Assembly (NCBI GenBank): GCA_001029695.1
Contig: CP011211.1
Coordinates: 600,001-632,000, forward strand
Direction of reading: 5' to 3'
From: Candidatus Saccharimonadota bacterium
GTDB taxonomy: Bacteria; Patescibacteriota; Saccharimonadia; Saccharimonadales; Saccharimonadaceae
DNA length: 32,000 bases
Shown here: positions 7,371 through 23,484 of the stretch, piece by piece
Layout of the letters: the number at the start of each line of letters is the position of its first letter
Position numbering within the stretch: position 1 is the first letter of the stretch
Made by a program: the position numbers and the translations under genes
The notes under the pieces: model-generated
What the model saw: the letters and a program-made list of their open reading frames with translations, nothing else
The model's database searches: none
What the model was told of the DNA's origin: nothing

Positions 7371-7865
7371 TTATTCATGCATTGACAGGCCATTAAGCAT
7401 ATCTTTGCCGGCCCTTTGCAGGGCTGCGCCATGATCTTTGGAGCCGATCCAATCTGGCATATCGATCGTTCCGGCTTCTTCGAGCAAGAGCCCTTCGATT
7501 AATTCTCTAGCGTCCATCGCCAGTCGCTTGTTGAGACCATTGATTTGCAACTGGTGTGCGGTATTTTTGCCGATGATTTGTATGCCGGCAAAAAATGCCG
7601 TATCGATATAAACTACTCGACCTATATCGCGCACCGGCATCGTTTCGATGAACGATACTAGGAATTGATTGCGGATGATCGAAATAGTTTTTTCCTGCAC
7701 CACGAGCTCGTCAGGAAAAATATCGGTAATCCAATGCGCTTTGAGTTTTAGCAGCTCGCGGTTATAGCCTTTTTGGCTCGGCAACGTGCTTGATTCAACT
7801 TTGCCAGTCTGTATCTGTGCAGGGTACGGCATATTGCGGCCTGTTTGAGTAACTCCGTTTGCCAT
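7371..7865 (-). CDS. Hypothetical protein
   Basis: The 164-aa ORF has a GGGAGG SD 7 nt upstream of ATG 7865. I recognise no motif. It lies immediately downstream of the Clp remnant, so it was probably once co-transcribed with that gene. Confidence 0.6.
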   Translation of the reverse strand: MANGVTQTGRNMPYPAQIQTGKVESSTLPSQKGYNRELLKLKAHWITDIFPDELVVQEKTISIIRNQFLVSFIETMPVRDIGRVVYIDTAFFAGIQIIGKNTAHQLQINGLNKRLAMDARELIEGLLLEEAGTIDMPDWIGSKDHGAALQRAGKDMLNGLSMHE

Positions 7866-8050: not shown

Positions 8051-8070
8051 CTATATTAGCACGAGCGGTA

Positions 8071-8781
8071 CTATTTGTCAATCTTATGCAAGTCCCACGC
8101 AGTAATAATACCTAGGGGAGTTGCCGATGCATCCCCCTTGTCCGATACAAGAACTGCCAAGAGTCGCTGGCCCTTTTTTATAGCATTATTAAACATATCC
8201 TCAATCTCATAAACGGTCACTTTCCTGGTGACAAATGCATATACATCAGAGTCATCGCCATAGGGCTTGTCGTAGGCAACATCCTTAATTTTTGCTTCAT
8301 CGATAAGTGCACCACCATGTTCAAAAGCTTTATCTACAATTTTAACAACAGTACTCTCAGATACGAAACCTATCACCCTTTTATCTTCTACTATCGGCAG
8401 ACTTGTAATGTGCATTTGAGCCATCTGTCTAACTACTTCCGATAAGTTATCGTCGAGTCCAACTTTTATTAGCTCGGTAGTCGCAATATCCCATGCAGTT
8501 TTTGGCTGCTCTATATTTACAACCAACTGACGAAGTGCCGTGACAGTTTCCTCATAAGGCTCTGCAATTGCGCGGTCCGTAGATTGATGGATAATCGCAT
8601 TGCGTAGCTCTATAAACTGTCGAATGTCTCTTTCAAATTGTCTAACTACACGGTCCTTATGGATATTAACAAGTGATGAGACCACCGATGATATAGATTC
8701 TTCGCTGCGAGCATTTGCTCGCTTCTTGAGCATCGTCTCTAATTTATTGAATTCGATCCTGTATTCTTCAGCTCGCGTCAT
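8071..8781 (-). CDS. HEPN-domain (Swt1-like, Rx4H) protein fused to a CBS-domain pair
   Basis: The 236-aa ORF has an N-terminal helical domain ending in FIELRNAIIHQS (R-x4-H HEPN motif). Two CBS repeats follow (TELIKVGLDDNLSEVVRQMAQMHITSLPIVEDKRVIGFVSES and AFVTRKVTVYEIEDMFNNAIKKGQRLLAVLVSDKGDASATPLGIITAWDL). An AGGAGG SD precedes the ATG. Confidence 0.7.
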   Translation of the reverse strand: MTRAEEYRIEFNKLETMLKKRANARSEESISSVVSSLVNIHKDRVVRQFERDIRQFIELRNAIIHQSTDRAIAEPYEETVTALRQLVVNIEQPKTAWDIATTELIKVGLDDNLSEVVRQMAQMHITSLPIVEDKRVIGFVSESTVVKIVDKAFEHGGALIDEAKIKDVAYDKPYGDDSDVYAFVTRKVTVYEIEDMFNNAIKKGQRLLAVLVSDKGDASATPLGIITAWDLHKIDK

Positions 8782-8785
8782 AACG

Positions 8786-9514
8786 CTATATCCTCCTGGC
8801 TGTTACATAATTATCAGTTCTTTGATTCCTTAGCTTTATCAGCTCACTCGTCATATTCATATACGACAGGTACTCGTCGACCGTTTTCGGTATTGGTGTC
8901 GAACGGAAGTCATCGAAAGGCTCAGCTATTTTGACGCTCGTGTAATCTTCTGTCACGTAATCTTGTAGCAAAAAGAAGTCGATATAGCCCTTAAAATCAT
9001 CGAAAAGTTGAAAGAAGTCACTATACCTCACGAAGGTTTCATATAGCGGGCTAGCTTCACCTAAATAAAAGCGCCGGATACACTCAATCGTTAGATCGAG
9101 GCGATCGACAATCTGCCGGTTAAAACCTCTGGCGCCATTGATAGTCTGGAACCCATTTATTTTATTACTAGGCCAAATTACGATTCCACCTATCGTATCT
9201 GTGAGACGAATAAAATCCTCTAATTCTTTTGCGGGAATCTGATCAATTACATGCTTCATCTTCACCCACGACGAGAACGTGGCAATTGCTCGGTCACTTG
9301 ATAAATAAAACTCACCCAGTTCAGACCTATGATACAAACGGTTATCGCTAATTTTTGTTAGCTCAAACATTTTTCCGCTAGGCAGTGGCTTGCTCCATAA
9401 GATGCGGTGATATTCCTGCAAAGTTGGGCTGTATTTATCCGAATCCCTCTGGACACCAGCCCTATCAAGGCCGGCTTCTTTCTGAAAATCAAAATCGACA
9501 TCAATTGCGCTCAT
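8786..9514 (-). CDS. Conserved-looking protein of unknown function
   Basis: ORF 8786..9535 starts with TTG. ATG 9514 has a GAGGAAGGG SD and lies 4 nt after the HAD stop. Blocks are YHRILWSKPLPSGK, IWPSNKINGFQTINGARG and DRLDLTIECIRRFY. I vaguely recall a DUF-type family (possibly DUF6994) but cannot verify it. Confidence 0.6.
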   Translation of the reverse strand: MSAIDVDFDFQKEAGLDRAGVQRDSDKYSPTLQEYHRILWSKPLPSGKMFELTKISDNRLYHRSELGEFYLSSDRAIATFSSWVKMKHVIDQIPAKELEDFIRLTDTIGGIVIWPSNKINGFQTINGARGFNRQIVDRLDLTIECIRRFYLGEASPLYETFVRYSDFFQLFDDFKGYIDFFLLQDYVTEDYTSVKIAEPFDDFRSTPIPKTVDEYLSYMNMTSELIKLRNQRTDNYVTARRI

Positions 9515-9518
9515 GATT

Positions 9519-9941
9519 TCACCCTTCCTCGACAATCGACTTCAGTAGTTTTAGTTCATGCACCATTTGATCAGGATATTTGGCTAAATTAACTTCAATC
9601 CACGAGTTGAAGACTCCGTGCTCATGCAGGTCAATCTTCTCGCCACTAAAGCAGTCGTCGTCGAACCACAGAAATGGTTTCGTAAAGTCGATCGCTTCAG
9701 TTTTCTTCAAGCTCCAAGTGACTGGCTTAAACTTTTCGAGCCACGGTCGTAAGTCTTCATCACTTCCACGCTGCAAGTACTCAATTGCGTGACCGGTCGT
9801 TCCATCCATGCAGTGTGTCGTGAGCCAATATACATCAAAATTATCTGCAGCATATTTTATAAACTCAGCCGCCCCGATAGCCAAGTTCTCTTCGTTTGCT
9901 AGCAGTACCCCGTCGATGTCTAAATATAGAGCAGGTTTCAT
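9519..9941 (-). CDS. Cap-less HAD-superfamily phosphatase
   Basis: ORF 9519..9980 trimmed to ATG 9941, which overlaps the upstream stop as ATGA. Motif I is LYLDIDGVLL (DxDGx), motif II is WLTTHC, and motif IV is LWFDDD. Confidence 0.75.
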   Translation of the reverse strand: MKPALYLDIDGVLLANEENLAIGAAEFIKYAADNFDVYWLTTHCMDGTTGHAIEYLQRGSDEDLRPWLEKFKPVTWSLKKTEAIDFTKPFLWFDDDCFSGEKIDLHEHGVFNSWIEVNLAKYPDQMVHELKLLKSIVEEG

Positions 9942-11287
9942 ATTTTTAATAGCTCCTGCCATATCCTCACCATCGCCCACGTATCCATCCTGCAGTACTC
10001 AGTCAAGTCGGCGAGTATCTGCTCTTTCTGGTCCGCCCGCGTCTCATCGAGTACCGCCTCCATCCAGAGCCGTTGAGCGGAGTTGCCATCTTGAATACCA
10101 AGCTCTTTGTAGCTTAATTCGGGGCACACTACTGGCAACACCTTTTTGATGCTCGCGCTTCCCTCGCATCGCGGATCGTCATACCATTTTGCCTTGAACG
10201 GAATCATGAGGTCAACGACTCGTTCGTTGATGGCCGTGATTTGTTCGGCATACTCTGGGTACATCCGTCCCAGCTCTTCGTTAACCGATTTTTCAAAGCG
10301 CATATTCCAGGTAATGATTGATCCCGAATCGCCCATATCTTCTACTAGCCGTTTAGCTAAATCTGGTGCTGGATTAGTGTTATCTTTATGGAGATATTCT
10401 CGATGCTCTACTTCCCCGCCCGGCTCGCGGATGATATGCAAAGAGTATTGGAACGGTACCTGCTGATACGGTCGCTGTCCATCGAAATACGGCACAAGGC
10501 CCTGCATTGTTTCGTAATCAAAGAAGTAGAGTGGGTACTGCAATTCACCCAAAAAGCGCTCGATCTCCTGCTTGTTAATTTCGGCTCGAGTATCTGCTGG
10601 CCACACCGTAGGCTCGGGCGGAAATATATTTTCATAGACCTTCATCCATTCAGATTTTGAGCCTAGCTTAGCCAGCTCTGGATTCGGATCCGGCATTTCG
10701 GCTTGCGTGGCGGCTTTATTCGCTGCCTCCATGTATTCTGGAGTTTTTAAAGCAATTTCATTTACCTCATCTGTCACATCAGCAAACGTCGTAAGCTCTT
10801 TTGGATTAACGTCGCCCATACGAACGTACTGGTTATTTACATGGATCACCGATACATTTCGAACCGTAAAGCCATTACCCTCAAGCACGGTTTTCTGGAA
10901 CGCAAGATCGTATAGGTGATCTGGTTTAACGCATGTGCTGGATTTAATTTCATACAGGTCAATAGTCTTACCCTCTACAATTGAAACAATATCGGAGATA
11001 CACGTAAATCCATTCCATTCAAAACGGGGCTGGAATACTACCTGAGCACCCGATTCAAATGCTTGCTGGGTTCGTAGCGGTAGCGAACGGTACTCATCGA
11101 AATTACTGAAGCCGAGCGCCACGCCTTCAGGAAATAATGACTCAACATACGGCTCGAACGCATGCCCAGCGTCGAACATTGCTTGTGTCGCTGCGTCGAC
11201 GGGTGGAAGTTTGCTCGGGTCATTCTTTTTCAGCCAAAGCCAGGCTGGCTGGCGGAGAAAGAGCATGTAATCGGATTTGGATATCAT
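9938..11287 (-). CDS. Two-nuclease fusion: N-terminal PD-(D/E)xK (Cas4/RecB-like) + C-terminal DEDD/RNase-H-fold exonuclease (DUF2779-like)
   Basis: In the 449-aa ORF, ISDIVSIVEGKTIDLYEIKSS supplies D...ExK. The C-terminal half has YFFDYET (ExoI DxE), ITWNMRFEKSV (ExoII) and EYCRMDTWAMV (ExoIII YxxxD). The overall layout matches what I remember of DUF2779 proteins. Confidence 0.7.
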   Translation of the reverse strand: MISKSDYMLFLRQPAWLWLKKNDPSKLPPVDAATQAMFDAGHAFEPYVESLFPEGVALGFSNFDEYRSLPLRTQQAFESGAQVVFQPRFEWNGFTCISDIVSIVEGKTIDLYEIKSSTCVKPDHLYDLAFQKTVLEGNGFTVRNVSVIHVNNQYVRMGDVNPKELTTFADVTDEVNEIALKTPEYMEAANKAATQAEMPDPNPELAKLGSKSEWMKVYENIFPPEPTVWPADTRAEINKQEIERFLGELQYPLYFFDYETMQGLVPYFDGQRPYQQVPFQYSLHIIREPGGEVEHREYLHKDNTNPAPDLAKRLVEDMGDSGSIITWNMRFEKSVNEELGRMYPEYAEQITAINERVVDLMIPFKAKWYDDPRCEGSASIKKVLPVVCPELSYKELGIQDGNSAQRLWMEAVLDETRADQKEQILADLTEYCRMDTWAMVRIWQELLKI

Positions 11288-12105
11288 TGCTGTGACAACC
11301 TGAGTGGAAACTTTACCACCTGACGCTGATTGTTAGCTTCGTCCTTTTGCCGCTCATAATACGGATCGCCTACAAGCTGTACTTGGCCACGATACATATA
11401 CTCTTTCGGCTCAAACGATTCAAATAAATGCACGCCTACTCCATTCGTGCGCGATTCGGCCAAGGTTTTGTTCTGTGCATAATCTATCGACTGATCACCT
11501 GAGAGCCCCATGCCGGTGTAGTGCATCACGCCCTGGTCGTCCCATTTGTCTTCGTACGGATTGCCAGTATTATGCAGTGCAAAAAGAATCAAGCTATTGG
11601 CGCGGTTCGACTTTCGCATACCACCCTGCCCGCTCACGAGGAACATCCGCATGATATCTTCATTTTTATAAGCATCGCCAATCACTAGCTCGTGTAATGC
11701 AGGCTGTCGTTTATCTTTTGTAATTTGCTCTAGTAGCTCCACGTCAGCCGGCGCTAGCTCATAGCCATATAGTTGCCGCAGATTATCTACCCACGCTAGC
11801 TCAGAGTGCTCGCGTAGCTGGTAAGCTCCTAGTTTGTGTTCACAAGCGTATAGCTTGAGCATGATTTCATCGTTTATCTGCGTGTTTGCGAGCAGCTTAC
11901 TGACAGCGATAAGTGTGTTGAACTCTTCGACTATCTCGCGCTCTAGCGCCTCCTGTTCGGTCTCGCCATCCTCCACCTTACCGCCAGGAAATTCCCACAA
12001 GCCACCAAGTGCCGCATCAACCTTACGCTTAGCGATGAGGTATTTACCATTTCTTTCTATCAGCGCTGCAACAACAATCTTGTGCGTATTATCTTTTTTA
12101 TCCAT
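11284..12105 (-). CDS. MutT-type NUDIX hydrolase fused to an SRA/YDG-like (PUA-fold) putative modified-base-binding domain
   Basis: In the 273-aa ORF the N-terminal half contains GGLWEFPGGKVEDGETEQEALEREIVEEF (MutT-like Nudix box). The C-terminal ~135 aa read GGMRKSNRANSLILFALHNTGNPYEDKWDDQGVMHYTGMGLSGDQ...NKTLAES...VHLFES...YMYRGQVQL. This follows the SAD/SRA core pattern (G-x-R, buried strand, acidic Y-E-D, YTG-G). The assignment is from memory and needs an HMM check. Confidence 0.65.
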   Translation of the reverse strand: MDKKDNTHKIVVAALIERNGKYLIAKRKVDAALGGLWEFPGGKVEDGETEQEALEREIVEEFNTLIAVSKLLANTQINDEIMLKLYACEHKLGAYQLREHSELAWVDNLRQLYGYELAPADVELLEQITKDKRQPALHELVIGDAYKNEDIMRMFLVSGQGGMRKSNRANSLILFALHNTGNPYEDKWDDQGVMHYTGMGLSGDQSIDYAQNKTLAESRTNGVGVHLFESFEPKEYMYRGQVQLVGDPYYERQKDEANNQRQVVKFPLRLSQQ

Positions 12106-12799
12106 GACGTATCTCCAAGCTTTCTTTAATTTGCCTCCAGTGCGACAATTTACTGTTCATTATTCTATAAAATGCTTCGTCATGTTTCTTATTTACTACA
12201 TGACACAACTCATGAATACAAACATAATAAATTGCTTCGCGTGGCGCTTCAATGAGTCGCGGATTAAGTAGCACCTTGCCATCACTCGTATAACTGCCCC
12301 AGCGACGAGCCATAATGCGCTGTCCGAGCTGTGGCATTGTTTTATAATCGAATAATTTAAAAGCTTTCACGTACTCCTGCTTAAATATACGCTCACGATT
12401 ACGTGCATACCACTCGCCAAGTAGCTTTTTATTGTTTTCGCTGTTTTGTACTGAGCCAGTCGTATAGATTCGGAGCTTACCACGCTCTAACTTCACCGTA
12501 TCATTTTTAGCTTTTTCGACTAAAAGCATATACTGACGACCCAGGTAATAATACGACTCACCAGATATATACTTTCGCTCTGTGTTAGATTTTTTGAATT
12601 TACGCAGTTCAGATAATTGTCGCTCGAGCCACGACCATTTACGTTTCATAAACGACTCAATTTCGTCTAGTGTAGCGCCCAGCGGTGCTTTTACGATTAT
12701 TCGTAAGTTTGGCAGCACCTCAAGAGCTAGAGTTTTGCGCTTGGCAAATTCAATAAAATATTCGTAACTAAACCGCCCATACTCAAACTTTTGCTTCAC
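12098..12799 (-). CDS. DUF45/YgjP-like M48-type zinc metallopeptidase (common type I R-M accessory gene)
   Basis: The 233-aa ORF has a GTG start 2 nt after the hsdR stop. The HExxH motif sits in YYVCIHELCHVVNKKHD, and the WSYTSDGKVLLNPRL-type block (RWGSYTSDGKVLLNPRL) is typical of DUF45. Confidence 0.8.
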   Translation of the reverse strand: MKQKFEYGRFSYEYFIEFAKRKTLALEVLPNLRIIVKAPLGATLDEIESFMKRKWSWLERQLSELRKFKKSNTERKYISGESYYYLGRQYMLLVEKAKNDTVKLERGKLRIYTTGSVQNSENNKKLLGEWYARNRERIFKQEYVKAFKLFDYKTMPQLGQRIMARRWGSYTSDGKVLLNPRLIEAPREAIYYVCIHELCHVVNKKHDEAFYRIMNSKLSHWRQIKESLEIRHG

Positions 12800-12801
12800 A
12801 G

Positions 12802-15800
12802 CTACACCCCGTAGTCTGAATGGTTGTTTTCGGCGAGTGTCATAACTTTTTCGACGATTTGCTCTATTTGTTCATTTTCAAGTTCGATACCACGCCCAAT
12901 CTTAATCTCTTCGTAAACATAGTCATCGATGTTCGATCGCATCTGTCGCTTGATTTCATAGTTTCGCCACCAATCAACCGTCGCGCTCCGCTGCACTACA
13001 TTTGCTAGCTCTAAAATAATTTGTTGGTACTGCTCGTCACTTTCCATAGGCAACATTTCACGCAAGTTTCGATACAGCGCCCCCGCACCTGGTTCGCTTT
13101 GCACTACATCAGGGGTTTCATCATCTTTTTTCTGATCAACCTCTTTTTCAATTTCTCGTAGTTGCTTCAGCGCTTCGATATCTGCCATCTTCTTTTCGTG
13201 CATCGCCTGTAGTATTTCAGCAATTCGCTCCGAAAACTTACCATACAGCACTTCGTCGTCCTGCTGTCGCTCAGTAATTCGCCGTTTCGTTTGCGCAGCA
13301 ATTGCTTCGGCCTTCGATGTTACGCTTCCCAGCTCTTCAATCGCAGCGTTCAACTCATCACGGTTCGTCACTTCTATCTGGTCGGTTAGCACCTCGGCCT
13401 GAGACGCCGTCACGTATTGGTCGAGTATTCGGCTAATTTCGCGCTCGTACTGCTTCAAATCGATTTCTTCACCGTTCATCAAATCAGCATTGCGTTTTAA
13501 TTCGGCAAACTTTTTGATATCACGGCGATAGCGCTGTATCTCATCGTCACTAATCTTCTCTGCAAACCCACGAAGCGCCTTACATTCTTCGTATACATTC
13601 AGTAGCTGGTTAAACTTATCTTTATAGATTTTGCGTGTCGGCTCATCGCGCAGATGCTCGATGTAGCTATGGCTATCTTTTTCAACACCGTTGAACACAT
13701 CAAGCACTGCCGCATACTTTTGCGCCAGTTCTTCTACTTTGTCATTTATATCAATCAGCGTGCCTTTGACATCCGCTTCATCAAAATTGCCAAACAAATC
13801 CATGGCTTCCTGAATACTTGTGGCATTTTCAGAGTAGTCAATAATGAATCCGCTCGTCTTTGGATAATGCGGGTTATTAAACAGTCGGTTCACCCGCGCA
13901 ATTGCCTGTAGCAAGTTATGGTCGACCAACTTTTTTGCCAAATACAGCACGGTATTTCGCGGCGCATCAAACCCTGTCAGCAACTTATCGACAACAATTA
14001 AAAGCTCTATACCTTCTGGGTTGTTTTTGAAGTCATCGATTGTCATATCTTCGTAGGTTTTGAGCCCAGCATATTTAGCTTTTATCTCACTCAAATAATC
14101 AGCCACCTCTTGTTTCTTTAGGTCTTCTTCGCTGATTTCGTTGTTGTCATCACTAATTATCAGGGCTGTTTGGAGTTTATGTCGCCGCTCAAACCACCGC
14201 TGCATCACCACCGCGGCATATTTACTTGGCGCAACAATCTGACCCTTCAGACCTGTGTGCTGAAAATTATCGATGTAGTGCTGCTCAATATTCGCACACA
14301 CCTCTTCGAGCTTGCTCGGCACTTCGGCCAAAGTTCTATTCTCGACGCGCCGCTGTAGCTTATACTTATTTTGCGCCGACAGGTCTTCGCTTACTCGGTC
14401 GGCCAGTCTATCGATTTGCGGTGCGTTTTGGTCGAGCGCCACATAACGACCTTCATAAATCAGCGGCAATACTACATTATCAGCTAGCGCATCGTCTATC
14501 GTGTATTTATCGATAAACTCGCCGAATTTACTGCGTGATTTATCTTTTCGTAGCAGCGGCGTGCCAGTAAACGCAATCACGCATGCGTTCGGGATCACCC
14601 GTAGCATTTCCATATTGGCATCGCCGCCCTGTGAGCGGTGCGCTTCGTCAATTAGTACATAAATATTATCATCGGTATCTACAAAGTCCGTCCGCTTTTT
14701 GCCAGCACTTTCAAACTTATGAATCAGTGTCGTTAGTACGCTGGTGTCTTTACTCTTGATATGCTCCAGCAGCTCGTTACCGCTGGTCATTTGCTTGACT
14801 TTTTTCTTGAGGCCGCCGTTTTCAAACGTCTTTTTGATCTGCTTGTCCAGATCTACGCGGTCGGTCACCATTAGTACCCGCGGGTTTACTATGTGCGGTT
14901 GCTCTATCAGGGCGCGCACAAACATCACCATTGTCAGACTTTTACCAGAACCTTGGGTGTGCCATACAATACCACCCTTGTGGCGGCTGCCATACTCAGT
15001 TGTCTCAGTTTGTTTGATGCGCTCTAGCATTCGCTCTATGGCAAAATACTGCTGGTAGCGCGCCACTTTTTTGTATGCACCGTCATAAAATACAAAGTTT
15101 TTAACTATATCGAGCACCCGCTCTTGCCGTAGCATACCGTAAATCGTCTCGTCTTGCGGCATAATGCTACGCACCTGTAGTTGCTCCACACCATAGGTCG
15201 CACCGTTAAGGTCGCGCAGCAGCTGTGCGTATACGTCTTTGTCGATCGGCTTTGCTATGACATCTCGTAGTGTTGCGTGTAATCGCTCTTTTGGTGTATT
15301 CTTTTCACGCCACGATGAATAAAACTCTTCGGGCGTGCCCGCTGTGCCATATACCGCGTTTTCACCGTCCATAGCCAGCAGCAGCTGCTCGTAGATAAAT
15401 AGCTTAGGCGCATGGTCAGGCTTTTGGTAGCGCAGTAGCTGAGCAATAGCTTTTTTGTAGCCAACACTCGATTTTTTGTTTTCGATATGCACCAGCGGTA
15501 TACCGTTTACAAAACACACTATGTCCGCTCGTATCGCTTCGCGCCCCACCACACGATACTCTACCGTTACATGAAATTCATTATTGGCTATATTATCAAA
15601 GTCAAAATACCGCAGGCTTTTGTTTTCGTGCTTGCCCTCATGAAATACCTCTATGGTGCTACCTCCAAGTTTTGGCATGATGATATCCGTCACCGCCCGA
15701 CTAGTATCTATCACGCCGTCTACGCGGATAGATTCTAATTCGCTAACAACCCGCGCAATGTCACCTTCTTTGAACTTGTGCGTTTCGCCTACGTGTTCAT

Positions 15801-15984
15801 AGCTGTTTATACGCATTAAACTACGCCGCAGCACATCACCCAGTATCACGCGGCTATCATCGTCGCCCCGTAGCGCTAGCGCTTGCTTGCAGCTAAGGTA
15901 CTGCCAGCCGAGGTTTATCAGTAGCTCGACCGCCGGCAGCTGCGACTGCTTGGCTTCGTCAAAATTTATCGGTTCCATGCTCAT
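12802..15984 (-). CDS. hsdR: Type I restriction enzyme R subunit
   Basis: The 1060-aa ORF has an N-terminal HsdR_N nuclease region (DIVCFVNGIPLVHIENKK), SF2 helicase Walker A HTQGSGKSLTM, and DEAH box VLIDEAHRSQ. The ATGA overlap joins it to the hsdS stop. Confidence 0.95.
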   Translation of the reverse strand: MSMEPINFDEAKQSQLPAVELLINLGWQYLSCKQALALRGDDDSRVILGDVLRRSLMRINSYEHVGETHKFKEGDIARVVSELESIRVDGVIDTSRAVTDIIMPKLGGSTIEVFHEGKHENKSLRYFDFDNIANNEFHVTVEYRVVGREAIRADIVCFVNGIPLVHIENKKSSVGYKKAIAQLLRYQKPDHAPKLFIYEQLLLAMDGENAVYGTAGTPEEFYSSWREKNTPKERLHATLRDVIAKPIDKDVYAQLLRDLNGATYGVEQLQVRSIMPQDETIYGMLRQERVLDIVKNFVFYDGAYKKVARYQQYFAIERMLERIKQTETTEYGSRHKGGIVWHTQGSGKSLTMVMFVRALIEQPHIVNPRVLMVTDRVDLDKQIKKTFENGGLKKKVKQMTSGNELLEHIKSKDTSVLTTLIHKFESAGKKRTDFVDTDDNIYVLIDEAHRSQGGDANMEMLRVIPNACVIAFTGTPLLRKDKSRSKFGEFIDKYTIDDALADNVVLPLIYEGRYVALDQNAPQIDRLADRVSEDLSAQNKYKLQRRVENRTLAEVPSKLEEVCANIEQHYIDNFQHTGLKGQIVAPSKYAAVVMQRWFERRHKLQTALIISDDNNEISEEDLKKQEVADYLSEIKAKYAGLKTYEDMTIDDFKNNPEGIELLIVVDKLLTGFDAPRNTVLYLAKKLVDHNLLQAIARVNRLFNNPHYPKTSGFIIDYSENATSIQEAMDLFGNFDEADVKGTLIDINDKVEELAQKYAAVLDVFNGVEKDSHSYIEHLRDEPTRKIYKDKFNQLLNVYEECKALRGFAEKISDDEIQRYRRDIKKFAELKRNADLMNGEEIDLKQYEREISRILDQYVTASQAEVLTDQIEVTNRDELNAAIEELGSVTSKAEAIAAQTKRRITERQQDDEVLYGKFSERIAEILQAMHEKKMADIEALKQLREIEKEVDQKKDDETPDVVQSEPGAGALYRNLREMLPMESDEQYQQIILELANVVQRSATVDWWRNYEIKRQMRSNIDDYVYEEIKIGRGIELENEQIEQIVEKVMTLAENNHSDYGV

Positions 15985-17282
15985 AGTGCGCTCCTTTCTA
16001 GGCGAGTTGTATCAAGCGGTTTCAAATCCTCGGGAGTTCGAATAGCGCCGGTGATGAGATTTTTAAGGAGGTATTTTTTCTGAAGCCGTATTTCGTTTAA
16101 TGTTGCTTTCAGAGCTTCGATCTCATCATCAGCGATCTTAACTACACTAGCAATTGCATCCTGCTCCTCTATGTCATCTGGGATCGTGATCTTTGCACTC
16201 TCAAGAGCATCCTTTGATAAAGTAAATCGTGTTGCACCTTGTGCTCTTTTCCAAAGTTCTTTGTAGAAAGCATTCGTTTTAAAGCAATATGCCGCAAAAC
16301 TGACGGACATATAGGAACCCTTCATCCTGAGTCGCATCAGGTGATAACTGAACACAGTCATTGGTAAATCCTCGATAACTACTGCGCTATGTCCTATGTC
16401 CGTAGGCGTCTCTGACGAAGGGGTGAACAGAACGTCTCCGCTCTTCAAGTCAGATGCACCTATCTGAGACTCTTTAGCTGTGACCGCTTGAAAAATGTCG
16501 GAGTTACTTATGCGATCTCTCCTGTATACGTCCATATAGTTTAGTAACCTAACACTCTGCTCACCTGCTACAGACAGCTTATCTACGCTGCTAGTACGAG
16601 CATACCCCATATCTCCAAGTGAAACCGTTATCCATTCACGATCAAATCCAGGCATGCGGCGCTTTCCAGTCAAAAGCTGCTGCATCAACCCCTTTTTCAG
16701 CTGCCCTTTCAGCGCGATCTTCTGCTCCAGCTTCTCGATATACTCGTCCCAAACCTCCAAAACCCCCACAATCCGCTCTTGCTCTGGCTTTTCAGGATAG
16801 CTGACGTCGACACTCGCTATACTGCTTTTAGTTAGTCCGTAGACTTTGCTATAAACAGACATTTGCATTAAGCGTTTATGAGTTGCCGGATTTTTAAGCA
16901 TAAGACCAGTAAATCCTGGCGCAAACTCATCATTTTTACTGCGCAGCGCAAAAGTGTGAAGTCCTCCTATGACTTTTCTTTCGCTAACATTTCGTAATTC
17001 AACAGAGGAGCCCACTCCATCGTAATCTTCCGAAGCGTCAGCAACTACCAGATCGCCATCCTGTAGCCGCATATTGTCGCGAACAGTATTCTCTATCAGT
17101 ACTGGCACGATATCTTTGTCCAAATTTACATATGTAAAATATTTTGTGTGAATATCACCATAGTGAATATTGAAAACTTGATTAGGATTATCTGTAGCGC
17201 TGGTCATATCGTTGCGCGAGTGCGCACCAGTCGATATAAAATCCATTACGTCGCCGAGTTTTTTTGTCTGCCAGCTAGTCAT
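15981..17282 (-). CDS. hsdS: Type I R-M specificity subunit (two target-recognition domains)
   Basis: ORF 15981..17306 starts with TTG, and ATG 17282 gives MTSWQTKKLGDV. There are two TRDs separated by the conserved helices EQERIVGVLEVWDEYIEKLEQKIALKGQLKKGLMQQLLTG and EQDAIASVVKIADDEIEALKATLNEIRLQKKYLLKNLITG. Confidence 0.9.
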   Translation of the reverse strand: MTSWQTKKLGDVMDFISTGAHSRNDMTSATDNPNQVFNIHYGDIHTKYFTYVNLDKDIVPVLIENTVRDNMRLQDGDLVVADASEDYDGVGSSVELRNVSERKVIGGLHTFALRSKNDEFAPGFTGLMLKNPATHKRLMQMSVYSKVYGLTKSSIASVDVSYPEKPEQERIVGVLEVWDEYIEKLEQKIALKGQLKKGLMQQLLTGKRRMPGFDREWITVSLGDMGYARTSSVDKLSVAGEQSVRLLNYMDVYRRDRISNSDIFQAVTAKESQIGASDLKSGDVLFTPSSETPTDIGHSAVVIEDLPMTVFSYHLMRLRMKGSYMSVSFAAYCFKTNAFYKELWKRAQGATRFTLSKDALESAKITIPDDIEEQDAIASVVKIADDEIEALKATLNEIRLQKKYLLKNLITGAIRTPEDLKPLDTTRLERSAL

Positions 17283-19092
17283 TGCTTTCCCCGAGCGTGT
17301 CCGCAATCTGTTTTAGAGCAATAAACCAGCCCTCAACTTCACTCCATGTGCCTGCCTGCTCAAAGATACTTTTAGTTAACACTCTAGAGACTTGTCCATT
17401 TAGTCTACTTTTTGCCGACTTTTCATCTATGCCGAGCTTATTAGCAACGAGCCGAGGCACGTCCTCTTCTGCCCAATTAGTTACACTTCCAAGCTGTACT
17501 GACAGCTCTGCCTCAATTAGCGACTGCGGTAAATAGTTCTCGATCTCTCTAAGATTTGTAAGTCGAGCAGAAGAATTGTCTGCGCGCGCATTCACTTCAT
17601 CGACATACCTTTGATTTTCTGACGTTTTAGGCTCAATATCTTTATCATATAAATGAAATTGAATGACGCTAGAGTTTTTGAGGTAATCACTTTGCACCCA
17701 GTCTATGAGATTGCTGCCGCGTAGTGGCATTATAGAAATATCGGATTCATCCAAATTAATTATCTGCTTAAGCTCTGGTATCGAGGAGTTGATGTTTTTC
17801 ACAAAGGTAACGTCGGTACTCCCCTCTAGGCACAAGATTAATTTATTATAATTCGGCATAACGCCCAATGATTTTGCGATTTTACCATAGGATCTTTCTC
17901 CTGATTTTACACTTTGGCCTTCAACTAGTCTTAGCGAACTGGTCGGCAGCATCTGGCTAAGAGCTGGACTATGCGTAGTTAGGATTACCTGGGTATTATC
18001 GGAGGCAGAAAGGGATATTAGTGCATTTATTAAGACTTTCTGATGCTCTGGGTGTTGCGATGTTTCGGGCTCTTCGATTGCATAGATTACGTCACCTACA
18101 TTGCGAGACTCTTTGCGTCTTTCCGCCTCGGCGCGAAAGAAATTAAGCAATACCAAGCGCTTAACTCCACTACCCCTCTTATTAAGCTTTATCTCTTTAT
18201 CTCCAACTATACCGATTGACTTAAACACATCAGCCCACTTTAACTCTTCTAGTTTTGGGAGTTTTGGAGATAATTGGTTAGCAATTTCAGGGTTCATCTC
18301 TTTTAACTTTTCAAGAGTTTGGTTGGCAATATCTTTGGTTCTAGATTCCACTTCGTTAAATATCTGCTCAAACTTATCCTGAAGATCAGGATCCTGCATG
18401 ATTTCTTTCACAGCCAACTTCATAGGGTTTTGCACTTCACTATCTTGATCGGAGTTAGAGCGATCAGACTGAAATAGAGCATATACTGGCGTGTATCTCT
18501 GTAGACTGTCCCATATCTTTTTAGTGTCTTCAGTTTTTGCGCTAATCTCGGTTAATTGTAGCTGTAAATCGTCTTCATGATTGCGAATAGCGGCGCGCAT
18601 AATGGCATTTATAGACTGATTCGAGCACTCTATAGAGTTATCTGTGATAACTTTTTTAAGTACAGATTGTTTTTGTTGCATAAGCTCGCGCGATAATTCG
18701 CTAGTAGGATGATTTGCTACTAAGAATACCGAGTCAGTCTTACCATTCTTATAAACTTTTTTAACTTCCAGCTCTCCGCTTGCATTAACTAAGTACTCTG
18801 ACTCTAGTGTTGTCTTATTGCCAGCGTCAATATCCACTTCGTTAGGGAGATCGGAAAAAGTAACCGAGATTGAGATTTCGTAATCTTCATTTTCTTCCGC
18901 TTCTTTATTTAGATCATCTGGTTCAATCTTTACACATGCATCCTTATCATTGAAAAATATATCTAAAGCTTCCAATAGTGTAGATTTACCAGCATCATTA
19001 CGGCCAACAAATACAGTCAAATCATCGATGGACATACTCACCTCGTCTCGGTAAGATCTAAAATTCTTCAACTTTAGCCCGGTAACCCTCAC
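17275..19092 (-). CDS. OLD-family ABC-ATPase + TOPRIM nuclease (single-polypeptide; class-1 OLD / fused PARIS-like)
   Basis: The 605-aa ORF has a GTG start overlapping the upstream TAG. N-terminal motifs are LKLKNFRSY, Walker A GRNDAGKST, Walker B-like VIYAIEEPETSQHP and H-loop ILTTHSP. C-terminal TOPRIM motifs are LILCLEGSTD (E), HLYDKD (DxD) and LREIENYL. Confidence 0.8.
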   Translation of the reverse strand: MRVTGLKLKNFRSYRDEVSMSIDDLTVFVGRNDAGKSTLLEALDIFFNDKDACVKIEPDDLNKEAEENEDYEISISVTFSDLPNEVDIDAGNKTTLESEYLVNASGELEVKKVYKNGKTDSVFLVANHPTSELSRELMQQKQSVLKKVITDNSIECSNQSINAIMRAAIRNHEDDLQLQLTEISAKTEDTKKIWDSLQRYTPVYALFQSDRSNSDQDSEVQNPMKLAVKEIMQDPDLQDKFEQIFNEVESRTKDIANQTLEKLKEMNPEIANQLSPKLPKLEELKWADVFKSIGIVGDKEIKLNKRGSGVKRLVLLNFFRAEAERRKESRNVGDVIYAIEEPETSQHPEHQKVLINALISLSASDNTQVILTTHSPALSQMLPTSSLRLVEGQSVKSGERSYGKIAKSLGVMPNYNKLILCLEGSTDVTFVKNINSSIPELKQIINLDESDISIMPLRGSNLIDWVQSDYLKNSSVIQFHLYDKDIEPKTSENQRYVDEVNARADNSSARLTNLREIENYLPQSLIEAELSVQLGSVTNWAEEDVPRLVANKLGIDEKSAKSRLNGQVSRVLTKSIFEQAGTWSEVEGWFIALKQIADTLGESND

Positions 19093-19637
19093 TACGCTTC
19101 TCCTTTTGCATTATTCATAACTTTCAACGTCTTTTCCAGCTGCTCACGCAGTTTCTCATCCGTCATCTCGCCCCGCTCGTCTTGCGCCTGGGCTTTAAGG
19201 ATGTTCATCAGCTCCTGGCCATCTTGAAACGTCTTATTGAGCTTTTCGATATCTTGCTCCTGCCTTGCAAGCAGCTGCTGGCGTTTACGAGATTGCTCAA
19301 AAAGCCCGGCAAAAAATACCACAAATCCAATCATGCCAATAATGACAGCCACTCGGCTATTAAACGACGGCACCGTAATTGTTAGCCCGGCAGTTGCTAT
19401 GGCAACAAACATTGGCAACAAGAATTTACACATACCAATCCAGTGATCGATTCCCTGAAGTTGCTTGACATGAAGTGACTGCACTATATTAAGTGCCCGC
19501 TCGGTCATATCGAAATGATCGCTCATCATGTTCATGGCTCCCTCCATGATTTGAGCGTATTTTGCCATACCACCCATTTGCTCAAAAGATTGTATGGCCA
19601 GCTCTAGCTCTTCTTGGGTAACTGGCTTACTATTCAT
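19092..19637 (-). CDS. Two-TM membrane protein with C-terminal coiled coil, unknown function
   Basis: The 181-aa ORF has TM segments FLLPMFVAIATAGLTITVP and VAVIIGMIGFVVFFAGLF, then RKRQQLLARQEQDIEKLNKTFQDGQELMNILKAQAQ. It overlaps both neighbouring genes. Confidence 0.6.
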   Translation of the reverse strand: MNSKPVTQEELELAIQSFEQMGGMAKYAQIMEGAMNMMSDHFDMTERALNIVQSLHVKQLQGIDHWIGMCKFLLPMFVAIATAGLTITVPSFNSRVAVIIGMIGFVVFFAGLFEQSRKRQQLLARQEQDIEKLNKTFQDGQELMNILKAQAQDERGEMTDEKLREQLEKTLKVMNNAKGEA

Positions 19638-20643
19638 CCTTCCCCTCCAGCCGCTTCACTTCTTTTTCAAAGTCACCAATAAATTCCTTGTCTTGCTGAA
19701 CGCGAAATACATCATATTCAGCCAATGCTTTGGTGTCTGCTTGTTTTTTGCTAATGTTGCCCGCGTTTTGAAGTTTTGGATAATCGTTGAGGTCGAGGTA
19801 GCCGTCCATTATACCGAGCCACTGTGCCATACTTGTTGGCATGTTTCTGCGCGCGCGAAGTTCGGCGGTATCAAGAAATGCCGACACTGCAACGCGCAGC
19901 TCGGATAACTCTTGGTCGCTGAGGTAATTCTTGGCTACGGTTACGTCGGTGCGGAGCACCTTGCCTTCTGGCGCTTGCTTCCAGTTGGTAAGCCCCATGT
20001 GTGGTTTTGTTTTGTCAGCACGAGCATGAATAAGCTCAGCTGCGGTTTTACCTGCTACGGCGTAATGGAGCTTGTTTTGAATAAACGCAAAGAATTCTTT
20101 GGCAATTTCACTAGTTTTATCGTAATCACTTGCGAGCGCAAATACATCGGTGACTTTTAGGTAAATCCGTCGTTCGCTGAGGCGAATTTCGCGAATACGC
20201 TCGAGGAGCTCTTCGAAGTAATCTTTGCCAAAGTGTGTACCTTGCGCCAGGCGCTCATCGTCAAGCACGAAGCCTTTTACCATGTACTCACGGAGTGTCG
20301 CGGTGGCCCACTTGCGAAAGGCCGTAGCCTGAAGAGAATTCACTCGGTACCCTACCGAAATAATTGCATCGAGGTTGTAAAATGCAGTAAGGTATTTCTT
20401 TCCGTCGGCGGCAGTTGTTCGAAATTTTCGAATAACTGAATCTGCGTCGAGCTCGCCCGAGCCAAAAACCTCTTTGAGGTGGTAGTTAATTGTATTAACC
20501 TCTACGCCAAAAAGCTCAGCCATGCGCTTTTGCGTAAGCCAGACTGTTTCGCCAGCATAAAAGACTTCGATATGCTGCTTGCCGTCGGGCCCAGAGTAGA
20601 ATAGGAATTCGGCTTCGTGAGGCGCTGAGAGGTTATCGGCCAT
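19630..20643 (-). CDS. rhuM: RhuM-family protein
   Basis: The 337-aa ORF contains ETVWLTQKRMAELFGVEVNTINYHLKEVF, YNLDAIISVGYRVNSLQATAFRKWATATLREYMVKGF and RIREIRLSERRIY, which is the typical RhuM block order. Confidence 0.85.
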   Translation of the reverse strand: MADNLSAPHEAEFLFYSGPDGKQHIEVFYAGETVWLTQKRMAELFGVEVNTINYHLKEVFGSGELDADSVIRKFRTTAADGKKYLTAFYNLDAIISVGYRVNSLQATAFRKWATATLREYMVKGFVLDDERLAQGTHFGKDYFEELLERIREIRLSERRIYLKVTDVFALASDYDKTSEIAKEFFAFIQNKLHYAVAGKTAAELIHARADKTKPHMGLTNWKQAPEGKVLRTDVTVAKNYLSDQELSELRVAVSAFLDTAELRARRNMPTSMAQWLGIMDGYLDLNDYPKLQNAGNISKKQADTKALAEYDVFRVQQDKEFIGDFEKEVKRLEGKDE

Positions 20644-20644
20644 A

Positions 20645-22153
20645 TTACTTAATCCCCAACTCCTTTAGGTAATGCTTCATCTGCTCCTCAAGCTTGCTGA
20701 GCTGTGGGTTGATGGCTTCGATTTGACGGATTGTTTCCGCGATATCTACTTCTTCCTCTTCTTCAAAGGTATCAACATAGCGGGTGATGTTTAGGTTGTA
20801 GTCGTTTTCTTTAATTTCATCGATGTTAGCGATGTGCGAGAATTTCTCGACTTCTTTTCGCTGGGTGAATGTATCGACGATCTTATCGGCGTTTTCTTTG
20901 GCGAGAGTGTTTTGCGCCTTGCCTGGCTTGAATTCCTTAGAAGCTTCGATAAACAGGATGTCTTTGTCGTTTTCGCGCGCGCCGCCTTTTTCGCGGGCGC
21001 GGTCGATGACCAAAATTGCCACTGGTATGCCGGTGGTTTGGAAGAAACCAGGCGCCAGGCCAATCACGGCATCAATGATATTTTCTTCAATCAGTTGCTG
21101 CCGGATTTTACCCTCAGCACCACCGCGAAACAGTACACCGTGCGGCACGATCACCGCCATGCGTCCAGATTGCGGTTTGAGCGTTTCGATCATATGAGTG
21201 ATAAATGCGTAGTCACCCTTGTCTTTTGGTGGAATACCGCGCCAAAAACGATTATATTGGTCGGCATCGGCGCTTTCTGCGCCCCACTTCTTGAGGCTGA
21301 AGGGAGGATTAGCTACATTTACGTCAAACTTCATAAGCCCATCGTTTTCTACCAGCATTGGGTTGTTGAGCGTATCGCCCCACTCAATCCGTGCTTGATC
21401 CATGCCATGAAGAAACATATTCATACGCGCTAGCTGATAGGTCTGCCCTTTGGCTTCTTGACCGTAGAGCGCGAAGTTATTGCTGCCCTGTTTTCGCACC
21501 TCTTCACCTGCTAGCAGTAACAAGCCTCCCGATCCAACTGCTGGATCCGAAATACGGTCGCCTGGTTTTGGCCGAGCGAGCCGAGCAACAAGTTCTGCTA
21601 CAGCCGTAACGGTGAAAAACTCGCCAGCTTTTTTACCGGCATCGGCGCCAAACTTTTCAATCATGTACATGTATGAGTTGCCGATGATATCTTCGCTGAT
21701 GTCACTCAGGTCAATTTTGTAAAAATCCTCCAACAAATGACGCATCATCTTATTGCGTTGCTGCGGCTTGCCAAGCACTGACTCGGAGTTGAAGTCTACG
21801 CTAAACACGCCGGCCAGTTTGTCCTTGTTGTGGTCCTCGATCTTACGAAGGGCGACGTTGATAATTTCACCGATATTGTCTTGTTCTTTTTGAGCGTAAA
21901 CCTCATCGAACGAACTGTTTGGTGGTATATAAAAGCGAGATGTCTTCATCTTGGCGTCGATTCGTGCTGTGTCGTCACCGAAGCGTGCTTTTAATTTAGC
22001 GTATTCAGCCTTTGACTTGTCACTTAGATACTTGAAGAACAGCATGGTTAATGCGTAGTCTTTATACACGTCTGCTCCGACGGATGTTCGAGATGAATCC
22101 GCCGCCGCCCACAGCACTTTATTCAATTCGTCTTGTGTAAATTGCTTGGTCAT
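20645..22153 (-). CDS. hsdM: Type I R-M N6-adenine DNA methyltransferase subunit
   Basis: The 502-aa ORF has the SAM motif ISDPAVGSGGLLL and catalytic VANPPFSLKKW (NPPF). An HsdM N-terminal helical domain is present. Confidence 0.95.
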   Translation of the reverse strand: MTKQFTQDELNKVLWAAADSSRTSVGADVYKDYALTMLFFKYLSDKSKAEYAKLKARFGDDTARIDAKMKTSRFYIPPNSSFDEVYAQKEQDNIGEIINVALRKIEDHNKDKLAGVFSVDFNSESVLGKPQQRNKMMRHLLEDFYKIDLSDISEDIIGNSYMYMIEKFGADAGKKAGEFFTVTAVAELVARLARPKPGDRISDPAVGSGGLLLLAGEEVRKQGSNNFALYGQEAKGQTYQLARMNMFLHGMDQARIEWGDTLNNPMLVENDGLMKFDVNVANPPFSLKKWGAESADADQYNRFWRGIPPKDKGDYAFITHMIETLKPQSGRMAVIVPHGVLFRGGAEGKIRQQLIEENIIDAVIGLAPGFFQTTGIPVAILVIDRAREKGGARENDKDILFIEASKEFKPGKAQNTLAKENADKIVDTFTQRKEVEKFSHIANIDEIKENDYNLNITRYVDTFEEEEEVDIAETIRQIEAINPQLSKLEEQMKHYLKELGIK

Positions 22154-22707
22154 TTTGCTGCTCCTTGTGATTTAGCTATTAGGTTGTCGTCTATATTTTT
22201 GAGTAGTTGATTTTTGAGATTGAGTAGCTTTTGCTGCTCGGTTAGATTATCGTGTAATTTCATAACCGTCTGCTGCTCAATTACTGGCGGTTGCGGTACT
22301 TTTATCGACTTCAGGTCAGATAACCGTAGTGTTTTTATGTGCGAGCCGCTTTCTAAGCGCGATAAAACTTCCTGACCTCTTGCTGAATTCAGAAACCTTG
22401 CCACAAAACGGGAGTTTAGATCTGCACTGACTGGGCGAAGCACAATCACAGAGGATGCTGCAACAGCCGGTAGCAGGTCTGGAGTAACCGTGCGGGCAAC
22501 AAACTTGCCGCGCGAGCTAAGCAGTATATCACCCGGTCTCAACAAGTGGTCCACTTTATCGAACATAACTCGCGTAATGCCTGCCAGATTAGCAGAAGTT
22601 ATATCACCCGACTGCACAACACCAACATCACCTCTATCAAGTCGAGCAATTGCGTCACGAAACGTGTAACCAGTCGAGATAGTAAATAGTTGACTTAACT
22701 CCATCAT
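22150..22707 (-). CDS. hsdS: Half-size (single-TRD) type I specificity subunit
   Basis: The 185-aa ORF has one TRD followed by a single conserved helix, PPVIEQQTVMKLHDNLTEQQKLLNLKNQLLKNIDDNL. It is the first gene of the operon and overlaps hsdM as ATGA. Confidence 0.75.
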   Translation of the reverse strand: MMELSQLFTISTGYTFRDAIARLDRGDVGVVQSGDITSANLAGITRVMFDKVDHLLRPGDILLSSRGKFVARTVTPDLLPAVAASSVIVLRPVSADLNSRFVARFLNSARGQEVLSRLESGSHIKTLRLSDLKSIKVPQPPVIEQQTVMKLHDNLTEQQKLLNLKNQLLKNIDDNLIAKSQGAAK

Positions 22708-22713
22708 GTCACG

Positions 22714-22742
22714 ATATTAGCAGAGCGGATAGGTGATGTCAA
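22714..22742 (-). promoter_or_regulatory. Consensus sigma70 promoter of the R-M super-operon, leaderless (TTGACA-17-TAATAT-6-ATG)
   Basis: On the minus strand the sequence is agagTTGACAtcacctatccgctctgcTAATATcgtgacATGATGGAG. Confidence 0.7.
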
Positions 22743-22764
22743 CTCTGACGTGACTGTACAGCAA

Positions 22765-23409: not shown

Positions 23410-23484
23410 ATTTGCAGTATATACCTTGTTTACTATTTGCTCTAGTCGTTGCGGCATTTTCTAAAAGCGCTTCAAGACCACGCA

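Follow-up and report, generated by a model that had tools for sequence, protein, structure and literature searches.

A HEPN-like domain joined to a CBS pair: a candidate ligand-gated RNase at the end of a type I restriction-modification array in Candidatus Saccharimonadota

We analyzed a window of 32,000 nucleotides (nt) from a Candidatus Saccharimonadota genome (GCA_001029695.1, contig CP011211.1, positions 600,001 to 632,000 of the forward strand), in which the gene at 8071–8781 on the minus strand is a complete open reading frame (ORF) with an ATG start, encoding 236 amino acids (aa) and a stop codon. Its product joins an N-terminal HEPN-like domain, carrying a predicted catalytic Rx4H motif, to a C-terminal pair of CBS repeats. 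With roughly even confidence, we read the HEPN-CBS protein as a self-contained HEPN ribonuclease (RNase) gated by an adenosyl ligand, which at this locus probably serves as a back-up effector linked to a restriction-modification (R-M) system. The concept is not the first of its kind. HEPN-CBS fusions were published in 2013 (Anantharaman, Makarova, Burroughs, Koonin & Aravind 2013), and DS-11 of E. coli (WP_000257686.1), a single-protein CBS-HEPN anti-phage system, has been validated by DefensePredictor (bioRxiv 2025 / Science 2026, PMC13092281); the family described here is an uncharacterized, domain-swapped counterpart of DS-11. A first-pass annotation of the gene, made from the sequence alone, had stated that it knew of no characterized defense effector with a CBS-gated HEPN, a premise that the 2013 listing and the characterization of DS-11 contradict. 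Its proposal of CBS gating itself gains an experimental precedent in DS-11, but no homology to that protein was found.

Architecture and conservation of the HEPN-CBS protein

Residues 1–95 (8497–8781, minus strand) are predicted to form a four-helix HEPN-like domain, as indicated by the AlphaFold2 (AF2) model and by sub-threshold HEPN profile matches. The modeled helices comprise residues 3–22, 30–39, 50–63, and 77–91, with a short insert at 44–48, and the domain modeled alone reached a predicted local distance difference test (pLDDT) score of 87.6. In this prediction, R60 and N61 fall within the final turn of helix 3 (50–63) and H65 in the loop after it. The Rx4-6H motif of HEPN domains is described at the end of the third core helix or in the following loop (PMC3710099); both the place of RNxxxH and the insert between helices 2 and 3 in the AF2 model fit this published topology. 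The helical character that the first-pass annotation assigned to the N-terminal ~95 residues is therefore retained, but not its view that the region ends in ELRNAIIHQ: this stretch corresponds to residues 58–66, and a fourth helix (77–91) comes after the motif.

The strongest argument for the HEPN assignment is motif conservation. The predicted catalytic Rx4H (RNxxxH) motif, R60-N61-A-I-I-H65 (8587–8604, minus strand), is invariant at R60, N61, and H65 in alignments A1, A2, and A4, and the three residues are conserved in 111/111 sequences, namely the query and 110 full-length cluster representatives that are 20–36% identical to it. L59 and A73 share this 100% conservation in the 110 representatives. 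The first-pass annotation had named a lack of conservation of the R and H residues among homologues as grounds for refuting its reading, and both are present in every representative. The RNxxxH motif was also found in all 85 family ORFs taken from genome loci. The departures found are limited to three metagenomic members, two with RNxxxY (L164, 386–1120; L172, 3583–4308) and one with RGxxxH (L132, 6001–6714), which may be inactive or altered. A further family-specific feature is the conserved loop A73-E74-P75 between helix 3 and helix 4 (8557–8565, minus strand), in which E74 is kept in 86% of the representatives (with D in another 6%) and P75 in 99%; the loop could have a structural or a second active-site role.

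Profile searches returned HEPN families below threshold. The best Pfam match of the isolated window domain was DUF3644 (E 2.1e-4, 21.4 bits versus a cut-off of 27.6), classed as a HEPN family in the 2013 survey (Anantharaman et al. 2013), with further matches to HEPN_RiboL-PSP (1.1e-3) and HEPN_Apea (0.032) and, in PADLOC, to RTasHEPN (0.018). Sub-threshold Pfam matches in 21 diverse members were to RiboL-PSP-HEPN (15/21), DUF3644 (10/21), HepT-like (8/21, best 1.9e-5), and, more rarely, HEPN_Cthe2314 (5/21), Apea (2/21), MAE_28990 (1/21), and Swt1 (1/21). Seven Pfam HEPN families were thus matched across these members, and the recurring sub-threshold matches were to HEPN families only; no helix-turn-helix (HTH) family appeared among the profile matches of the window protein or of the 21 members. 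The Swt1-like layout suggested in the first-pass annotation was not substantiated, as the window protein has no match to HEPN_Swt1 (PF18731) and the single match among the 21 members has an E value of 0.034. The top PDB profile match was the HepT toxin (6m6u, 5yep, 6m6w; E 0.02–0.04), which places LRNaivH over LRNIAVH. When homologues were searched again with the HEPN-only profile, no other architectures came back, just fragments and the same family, and hhalign of A4 against a DUF4145 (HEPN) alignment from R-M loci, a thin template of two sequences, gave no signal. Taken together, we consider the N-terminal domain very probably to be a HEPN domain.

The C-terminal part of the protein was assigned from both profile and fold. 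CBS repeat 1 (residues 96–155; 8317–8496, minus strand) is recognized by Pfam CBS at residues 98–149 (E 9.4e-13, 48.7 bits, cut-off 24) and by fold match. CBS repeat 2 (residues 160–236; 8074–8304, minus strand) was not called by Pfam and follows from AF2 secondary structure and fold match; the full-protein model, built on a 34-sequence alignment (pLDDT 90.8, predicted template modeling (TM) score 0.82), contains a second beta-alpha-beta-beta-alpha unit at 179–234, with strands at 179–184, 206–213, and 222–226 and helices at 190–202 and 228–234. A Foldseek search against PDB gave 379 matches at E ≤ 1e-3, covering ~140 columns over solved CBS pairs. The top matches were ST2348 (2ef7), MJ0922 (2p9m), and AcuB with AMP, ADP, or Ap4A, at a target-normalized TM score of ~0.5–0.8. 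Since the best fold matches are all CBS pairs, residues ~96–236 can be confidently modeled as a Bateman module, or CBS pair.

The ribose/phosphate-binding motif of CBS domains has the form G-h-h-[ST]-x-x-[DN]. It is matched in CBS2 by G224-I-I-T227-A-W-D230 (8092–8112, minus strand), whose G224, T227, and D230 are invariant in alignments A1 and A2 and are kept in 89%, 88% (plus 5% S), and 91% (plus 3% N) of the 110 representatives, respectively. The corresponding motif of CBS1 (GFVSEST) is non-canonical. From the sequence, one canonical adenosyl-ligand site is predicted, located in CBS2. The two-domain layout of HEPN-like region and CBS pair that had been read at 8071–8781 was thus borne out by Pfam CBS, AF2, Foldseek, and motif conservation. 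When its two halves are checked separately by profile and structure, the CBS pair is confirmed; for the HEPN domain, the fold topology agrees in AF2, but all HEPN profiles stay below threshold.

Family distribution and genomic neighborhoods

At a clustering level of 50% identity, the HEPN-domain profile retrieved 1,757 clusters with E ≤ 1e-3, of which 858 reached E ≤ 1e-10. Most proteins of the best 150 clusters are 229–264 aa long with the domain at the N-terminus, the remainder being mostly shorter proteins or fragments, and the HEPN-CBS architecture is essentially fixed across the family. Among species-representative genomes, members occur in Neobacillus, Ornithinibacillus, Virgibacillus, Priestia, Collinsella, Roseburia, and other Lachnospiraceae, as well as in Caldisericales, Cloacimonadota, Omnitrophota, and several lineages of the candidate phyla radiation (CPR); Haloplasma also has members. 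The family is annotated as "CBS domain-containing protein" only, with two homologues labeled 'predicted transcriptional regulator' by JGI. The nearest relatives of the window protein are named Candidatus Saccharibacteria, and an identical protein is found on at least 23 contigs with sizes up to ~1 Mb. One NCBI protein of 132 aa (P0069) equals the window protein minus residues ~82–185, an in-frame loss that cuts the HEPN domain short and removes CBS1 together with part of CBS2; it could be a true deletion allele or have arisen in the assembly. Matches to mobile elements amounted to four weak plasmid matches (Rhodococcus, Chlorohelix) and two "phage" matches. No genuine carriage by phage was found: the phage record that was examined, OR846607, is flagged UNVERIFIED_ORG, and its flanking genes show an E. 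faecalis chromosome.

This record, OR846607.1 ('Enterococcus phage Efs 1-1-1'), therefore contributes a chromosomal member (L101, 5992–6696), which was located by tblastn. Its gene order is fhs, family gene, lspA (4-nt overlap), rluD, pyrR, and pyrP, and gene lengths and order identify the family gene as EF1724 (704 nt, "CBS domain-containing protein"), which lies between EF1725 fhs (formate-tetrahydrofolate ligase) and EF_1723 LspA. EF1724 matches the family model over its whole length (133 bits, E 7e-43).

R-M genes recur beside members of the family. In the 68%-identical homologue (L099), the order is hsdM-hsdS-hsdR-ygjP-HEPN-CBS, with YgjP as the sole gene between HsdR and HEPN-CBS; the 51% homologue stands among HsdR, ParB-methyltransferase, and SocA genes, and the start of the 40% homologue comes 1 nt after the end of a Res/RE_endonuc gene. 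Homologues at 25–29% identity come after HsdR, after an Eco57I-like methyltransferase-restriction endonuclease (MTase-REase) whose surroundings include a PLD-SNF2 helicase and AIPR, or after an MmeI-like enzyme. Directly abutting R-M genes on the same strand include Res/RE_endonuc, HsdR, Eco57I-like MTase-REase, and HsdR-YgjP; at other loci, R-M genes are found a few genes away. About 8 of the approximately 38 metagenome loci having enough flank contain R-M genes: the family gene follows HsdR in L103 and L136, and in L130 (5965–6693) it lies inside a type I R-M operon (HsdM-HsdS-family gene-orf-HsdR), overlapping hsdS by 4 nt and with hsdR beyond. Members embedded in or appended to type I R-M systems (the window, L011, L099, L103, L130, and L136) do not make up most of the family. 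Because the R-M-linked members are mutually divergent, mostly 22–51% identical to each other, the linkage is recurrent and not one inherited arrangement.

Other neighbors vary. No partner gene conserved family-wide was found among the related loci compared. With tblastn, the window DUF6994 protein, 153-aa ORF, and DUF2779 protein gave zero matches in 88 related loci, and the window Nudix protein matched one of them, in Haloplasma. A Nudix-box regular expression found the motif in 2 of the 88 loci, and an association of Nudix genes with the family was rejected on this count. No MNT nucleotidyltransferase gene was present among the window neighbors or in the annotated related loci. One member follows an arginine biosynthesis operon, and another has an unfused HD_4 gene immediately downstream. 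In Haloplasma contractile (L009, 8001–10089), two family paralogues flank a convergent MutT-like NUDIX_4 gene. In nine CPR loci (L056, L062, L064, L066, L075, L079, L080, L082, and L088), the family gene abuts an unannotated protein of ~400–630 aa (cluster c10), usually in convergent orientation with overlapping 3' ends (coordinates checked in six loci). Cluster c10 has no Pfam match and is absent from the window; inspected by eye, its C-terminus looks like a remnant of a class I S-adenosylmethionine (SAM)-dependent methyltransferase.

In the window, the HEPN-CBS gene is the last of 15 co-directional genes that run from 24405 down to 8071 on the minus strand with gaps of ≤57 nt. The array begins with PDC-S18 and an unannotated 230-aa ORF (22765–23457). 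These are followed by a type I R-M section identified with Pfam and PADLOC (12802–22707, minus strand), consisting of an HsdS fragment, HsdM, RhuM/PDC-S05, orf181, an AriA/OLD/GajA-like ATPase (605 aa), HsdS, and HsdR. The segment at 8786–12799 (minus strand; Pfam/PADLOC) then carries YgjP, Nudix-SRA (PDC-S07), DUF2779, the 153-aa ORF with a HAD-like motif, and DUF6994, whose stop codon lies 4 nt ahead of the HEPN-CBS start; the sequence AGGAGGA (8791–8797) stands 9 nt 5' of the HEPN-CBS ATG. The DUF2779 protein is Cas4-like and RNase H-like, the Nudix protein carries a fused SRA-like domain and has a match to the candidate defense family PDC-S07, and DUF6994 is predicted to be HNH/type IV-restriction-like (Pfam 2024 paper). 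Nudix-SRA and DUF6994 look like separate DNA-directed defense genes. The region 8071–24405 is a dense defense island, which is remarkable given a genome of about 1 Mb.

The 153-aa ORF (9519–9980, minus strand) shows the HAD-like motifs LDIDGVL and WFDDD and is kept between DUF2779 and DUF6994 in all strains with the block. Its identification as a HAD enzyme was rejected, with Pfam, NCBIfam, PADLOC, and PDB sequence searches empty save a spurious chorismate mutase match (E 0.014). Six contigs with an identical HEPN-CBS protein share a constant block of Nudix, DUF2779, small ORF, DUF6994, and HEPN-CBS. Grouped by the cassette upstream of this block (L001/L003/L006, L002/L005, and L004), these loci show one cassette with DUF4145 HEPN genes, one with AriA-like ATPase and YgjP, and one with a fused M-S subunit; the site upstream of the block looks like a cassette-swapping hot spot. 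At the other end of the gene, a promoter-like site on the minus strand (8053–8081; TTGACA, 17 nt, TAATAT, and an upstream TG; 10/12 matches) overlaps the last HEPN-CBS codons and probably serves an unannotated 164-aa ORF at 7371–7865, for which no family match was found. In the promoter and terminator scan as a whole, counts were not above those of shuffled sequence.

Proposed mechanism and competing explanations

HEPN domains act on RNA as dimers, whose two subunits together build the active site, and CBS pairs dimerize and change geometry upon binding of an adenosyl ligand; the RNase would accordingly be gated by ligand occupancy. In the mechanism we propose, the minimal N-terminal HEPN domain would dimerize to form a composite Rx4H active site, and binding or release of a ligand at the CBS2 site would alter the dimer geometry and turn the RNase on or off. 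This switch would require no partner protein. As the last gene of a ~16-kb co-directional defense array around a type I R-M system, the window gene would most likely supply an abortive-infection-type back-up RNase, a role suggested by its genomic context. Its action would resemble that of DS-11, and its genomic logic that of PrrC, with a CBS sensor replacing the ABC ATPase.

Several observations weigh against this reading. No HEPN Pfam model matched the isolated domain at its curated cut-off, and Foldseek with the isolated domain gave nothing significant (best E 2.9 in PDB and 0.26 in BFVD), a small helical domain lying below the power of this method; HepT chains were the only PDB matches with a root mean square deviation near 5 Å, at a query TM score of 0.42–0.49. 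Homology to DS-11 was not detected by hhalign of domain profiles A3/A4 (E 0.036–0.073, probability <2%, with 1.4% at E 0.036), which aligned only the catalytic motifs, or by BLASTP of the window protein (E 3.4, not significant). The NCBIfam model DS11_antiphage (NF053863) scored 20.3 bits versus a cut-off of 260 and covered CBS1 only (residues 97–147), and PADLOC (2023) contains no model for the HEPN-CBS family. Regarding the genomic context, the type I R-M cassette upstream of the constant block comes in three versions among the six contigs with the identical protein, which hence have no fixed R-M partner. An adjacent R-M system is present in just 2 of 80 GTDB species-representative loci, with no R-M gene within 6 kb in the other 78. 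Members in Neobacillus, Ornithinibacillus, and Virgibacillus share a conserved neighborhood of housekeeping type, made up of PBP4, endonuclease IV, a response regulator, a tRNA-binding protein, and TANGO2. Finally, EF1724 is conserved in 24/24 Enterococcus species and belongs to the set of genes separating Enterococcus from Vagococcus.

The genomic part of this evidence speaks for the main rival, a housekeeping or stress factor for RNA processing or decay with the same biochemistry, which would read adenylate, SAM, or a second messenger through its CBS pair, with R-M adjacency being incidental or a result of insertion at a defense hot spot. A regulatory reading of this kind was proposed in the 2013 survey (Anantharaman et al. 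2013), and it accords with the synteny of the Bacillaceae members, with the member after the arginine operon, and with other neighbors, judged by eye, such as EF-G, an aminoacyl-tRNA synthetase, and Pol I. EF1724, a full-length and genus-core member, was moreover classified as 'Important' in a published transposon sequencing (Tn-seq) study (dVal 0.020). Polarity on lspA could account for this signal, because lspA overlaps EF1724 downstream and is itself 'Critical' (dVal 0.0025), and core-genome status is compatible with a defense or toxin role. In addition, R-M operons of at least four kinds are abutted or entered by mutually divergent members, for which chance is hard to invoke, and the window locus is a dense defense island. 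On the evidence from Bacillota, we regard a housekeeping role as possible but somewhat unlikely. Considerably less probable, in our judgment, is an ancient general metabolite-gated RNase, core in Bacillota (EF1724-type) and repeatedly captured by R-M systems as a PrrC-like tripwire; the CBS pair of R-M-linked members would then monitor a cofactor or product of the R-M system, for example SAM or ATP, and phage anti-restriction (SAM depletion or R-M inhibition) would unleash RNA cleavage.

Two further explanations concern the domain and its neighbors. The N-terminal domain could be a non-nuclease helical module for dimerization or for binding ligand, RNA, or DNA, making the protein a CBS-type regulator, as the sub-threshold HEPN models, the non-significant Foldseek result, and the two JGI transcriptional-regulator labels would allow; two metagenomic members carry RNxxxY, and some HEPN domains are non-catalytic (Anantharaman et al. 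2013). However, R, N, and H are conserved beyond any CBS residue at 20–36% identity, which is the signature of an active site and not of a packing helix; the motif occupies the position defined for HEPN domains, no HTH family is among the matches, and inactive HEPN domains typically lack the motif (Anantharaman et al. 2013). This explanation appears very improbable. The multi-gene alternative, in which HEPN-CBS is one part of a system with Nudix and HAD enzymes that make or destroy its ligand, as the first-pass annotation had suggested, or, in a variant, with DUF6994 as antitoxin or partner, draws on the tightly packed or overlapping genes on one strand, on the block that stays constant in six contigs despite differing R-M cassettes, and on the Nudix gene adjacent to the family in Haloplasma and beside P0066. 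Since the six contigs share an identical protein, the block reflects recent common ancestry only; it is gone at 68%, 51%, and 40% identity, the 68% homologue already being without those genes, and the system was rejected because the window neighbors are absent from the 88 related loci, save one Nudix. Fusion of the Nudix protein to an SRA-like DNA reader, the predicted HNH/type IV-like nuclease nature of DUF6994, and the lack of a profile or PDB match for the 153-aa ORF as a HAD enzyme also argue against it. We regard this alternative as largely refuted by comparative context and as the least credible explanation considered here.

Comparison with known systems

CARF/SAVED-HEPN effectors (Csm6, Csx1, and Cas13-independent RNases activated by cyclic oligoadenylate) fuse a sensor of adenosine-derived ligands to a dimeric HEPN RNase. 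The HEPN-CBS protein would follow the same logic; the difference lies in the sensor, a Rossmann-like CARF domain in the former and a CBS Bateman module in the latter, and no cyclase or CRISPR genes are near HEPN-CBS. HepT (5yep, 6m6u, 6m6w, 7bxo) is the closest solved structure by profile and likewise a minimal four-helix HEPN protein, of ~130 aa. HepT is controlled by its MNT nucleotidyltransferase antitoxin through AMPylation, whereas no MNT gene stands beside the family in the loci examined.

EcoprrI keeps PrrC latent, and PrrC responds to the nucleotides GTP and dTTP. In L130, the family gene occupies the same place between hsdS and hsdR as prrC does in the EcoprrI locus. PrrC and RloC resemble the HEPN-CBS protein in being HEPN RNases whose genes lie within or next to type I R-M operons, frequently accompanied by RhuM-like genes, and RhuM is present in the window array as well. 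They also couple an RNase to a nucleotide-binding regulatory module. They differ in having an ABC-type ATPase as regulator and the HEPN domain at the C-terminus, whereas the only other domain of the window protein is its CBS pair, and no sequence relationship of the window protein to PrrC/RloC was detected. The 2013 survey described R-M operons with HEPN genes inside them and noted RhuM-like neighbors for PrrC/RloC (Anantharaman et al. 2013). The same survey listed HEPN-CBS(-HD) fusions (alr3009; Pelobacter propionicus gi 118580987), with the entry "CBS and HD (alr3009), active" under Swt1-like HEPNs, and proposed that nucleotide sensing by CBS domains controls RNA stability; its table places RiboL-PSP-HEPN beside the Abi2/Swt1 group. 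These fusions likewise combine a HEPN domain predicted to be active with CBS domains, but they are computational entries, some with HD, and are likened to the window protein by description.

The closest functional parallel is DS-11. Its sequence, from the supplement of the paper, has 365 aa, with an N-terminal extension of ~120 aa, a CBS pair at ~125–245, and a HEPN domain at 252–359 with IRNDVMH at 329–335. Phage defense is abolished by Y157A in the CBS pair and likewise by R330A or H335A in the HEPN domain, an adenine derivative is the proposed ligand, and the HEPN domain was called Swt1-like by HHpred (PMC13092281). Like the window protein, DS-11 combines a CBS pair and a HEPN domain with RNxxxH in one polypeptide and needs no partner gene; the CBS pairs are collinear, and the CBS2 motif reads GIITTTD in DS-11 versus GIITAWD in the window protein. 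On the other hand, the order of modules is CBS then HEPN in DS-11 and HEPN (1–95) then CBS in the window protein, and the lengths are 365 and 236 aa, respectively. At the position of DS-11 Y157, the window protein has an Ile (I125), and 89% of the family carries Y or F. Whereas the DS-11 HEPN domain was assigned as Swt1-like, that of the window family gives sub-threshold matches to RiboL-PSP, DUF3644, and HepT models. Because no homology is detectable, DS-11 is an analogy for the window protein and not a family assignment.

The family in question reaches across at least 858 clusters in Bacillota, Actinomycetota (Collinsella), CPR/Patescibacteria, and other phyla, and it unites a genus-core Enterococcus gene with R-M-inserted members. 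Its ligand and RNA targets would bear on RNA metabolism in Gram-positive bacteria and on second-line defense in very small genomes. If the protein is active, it would represent a second, independently assembled CBS-plus-HEPN switch, in the reverse order to DS-11 and with no detectable homology to it, and the coupling of metabolite-sensing CBS modules to HEPN RNases would have arisen more than once.

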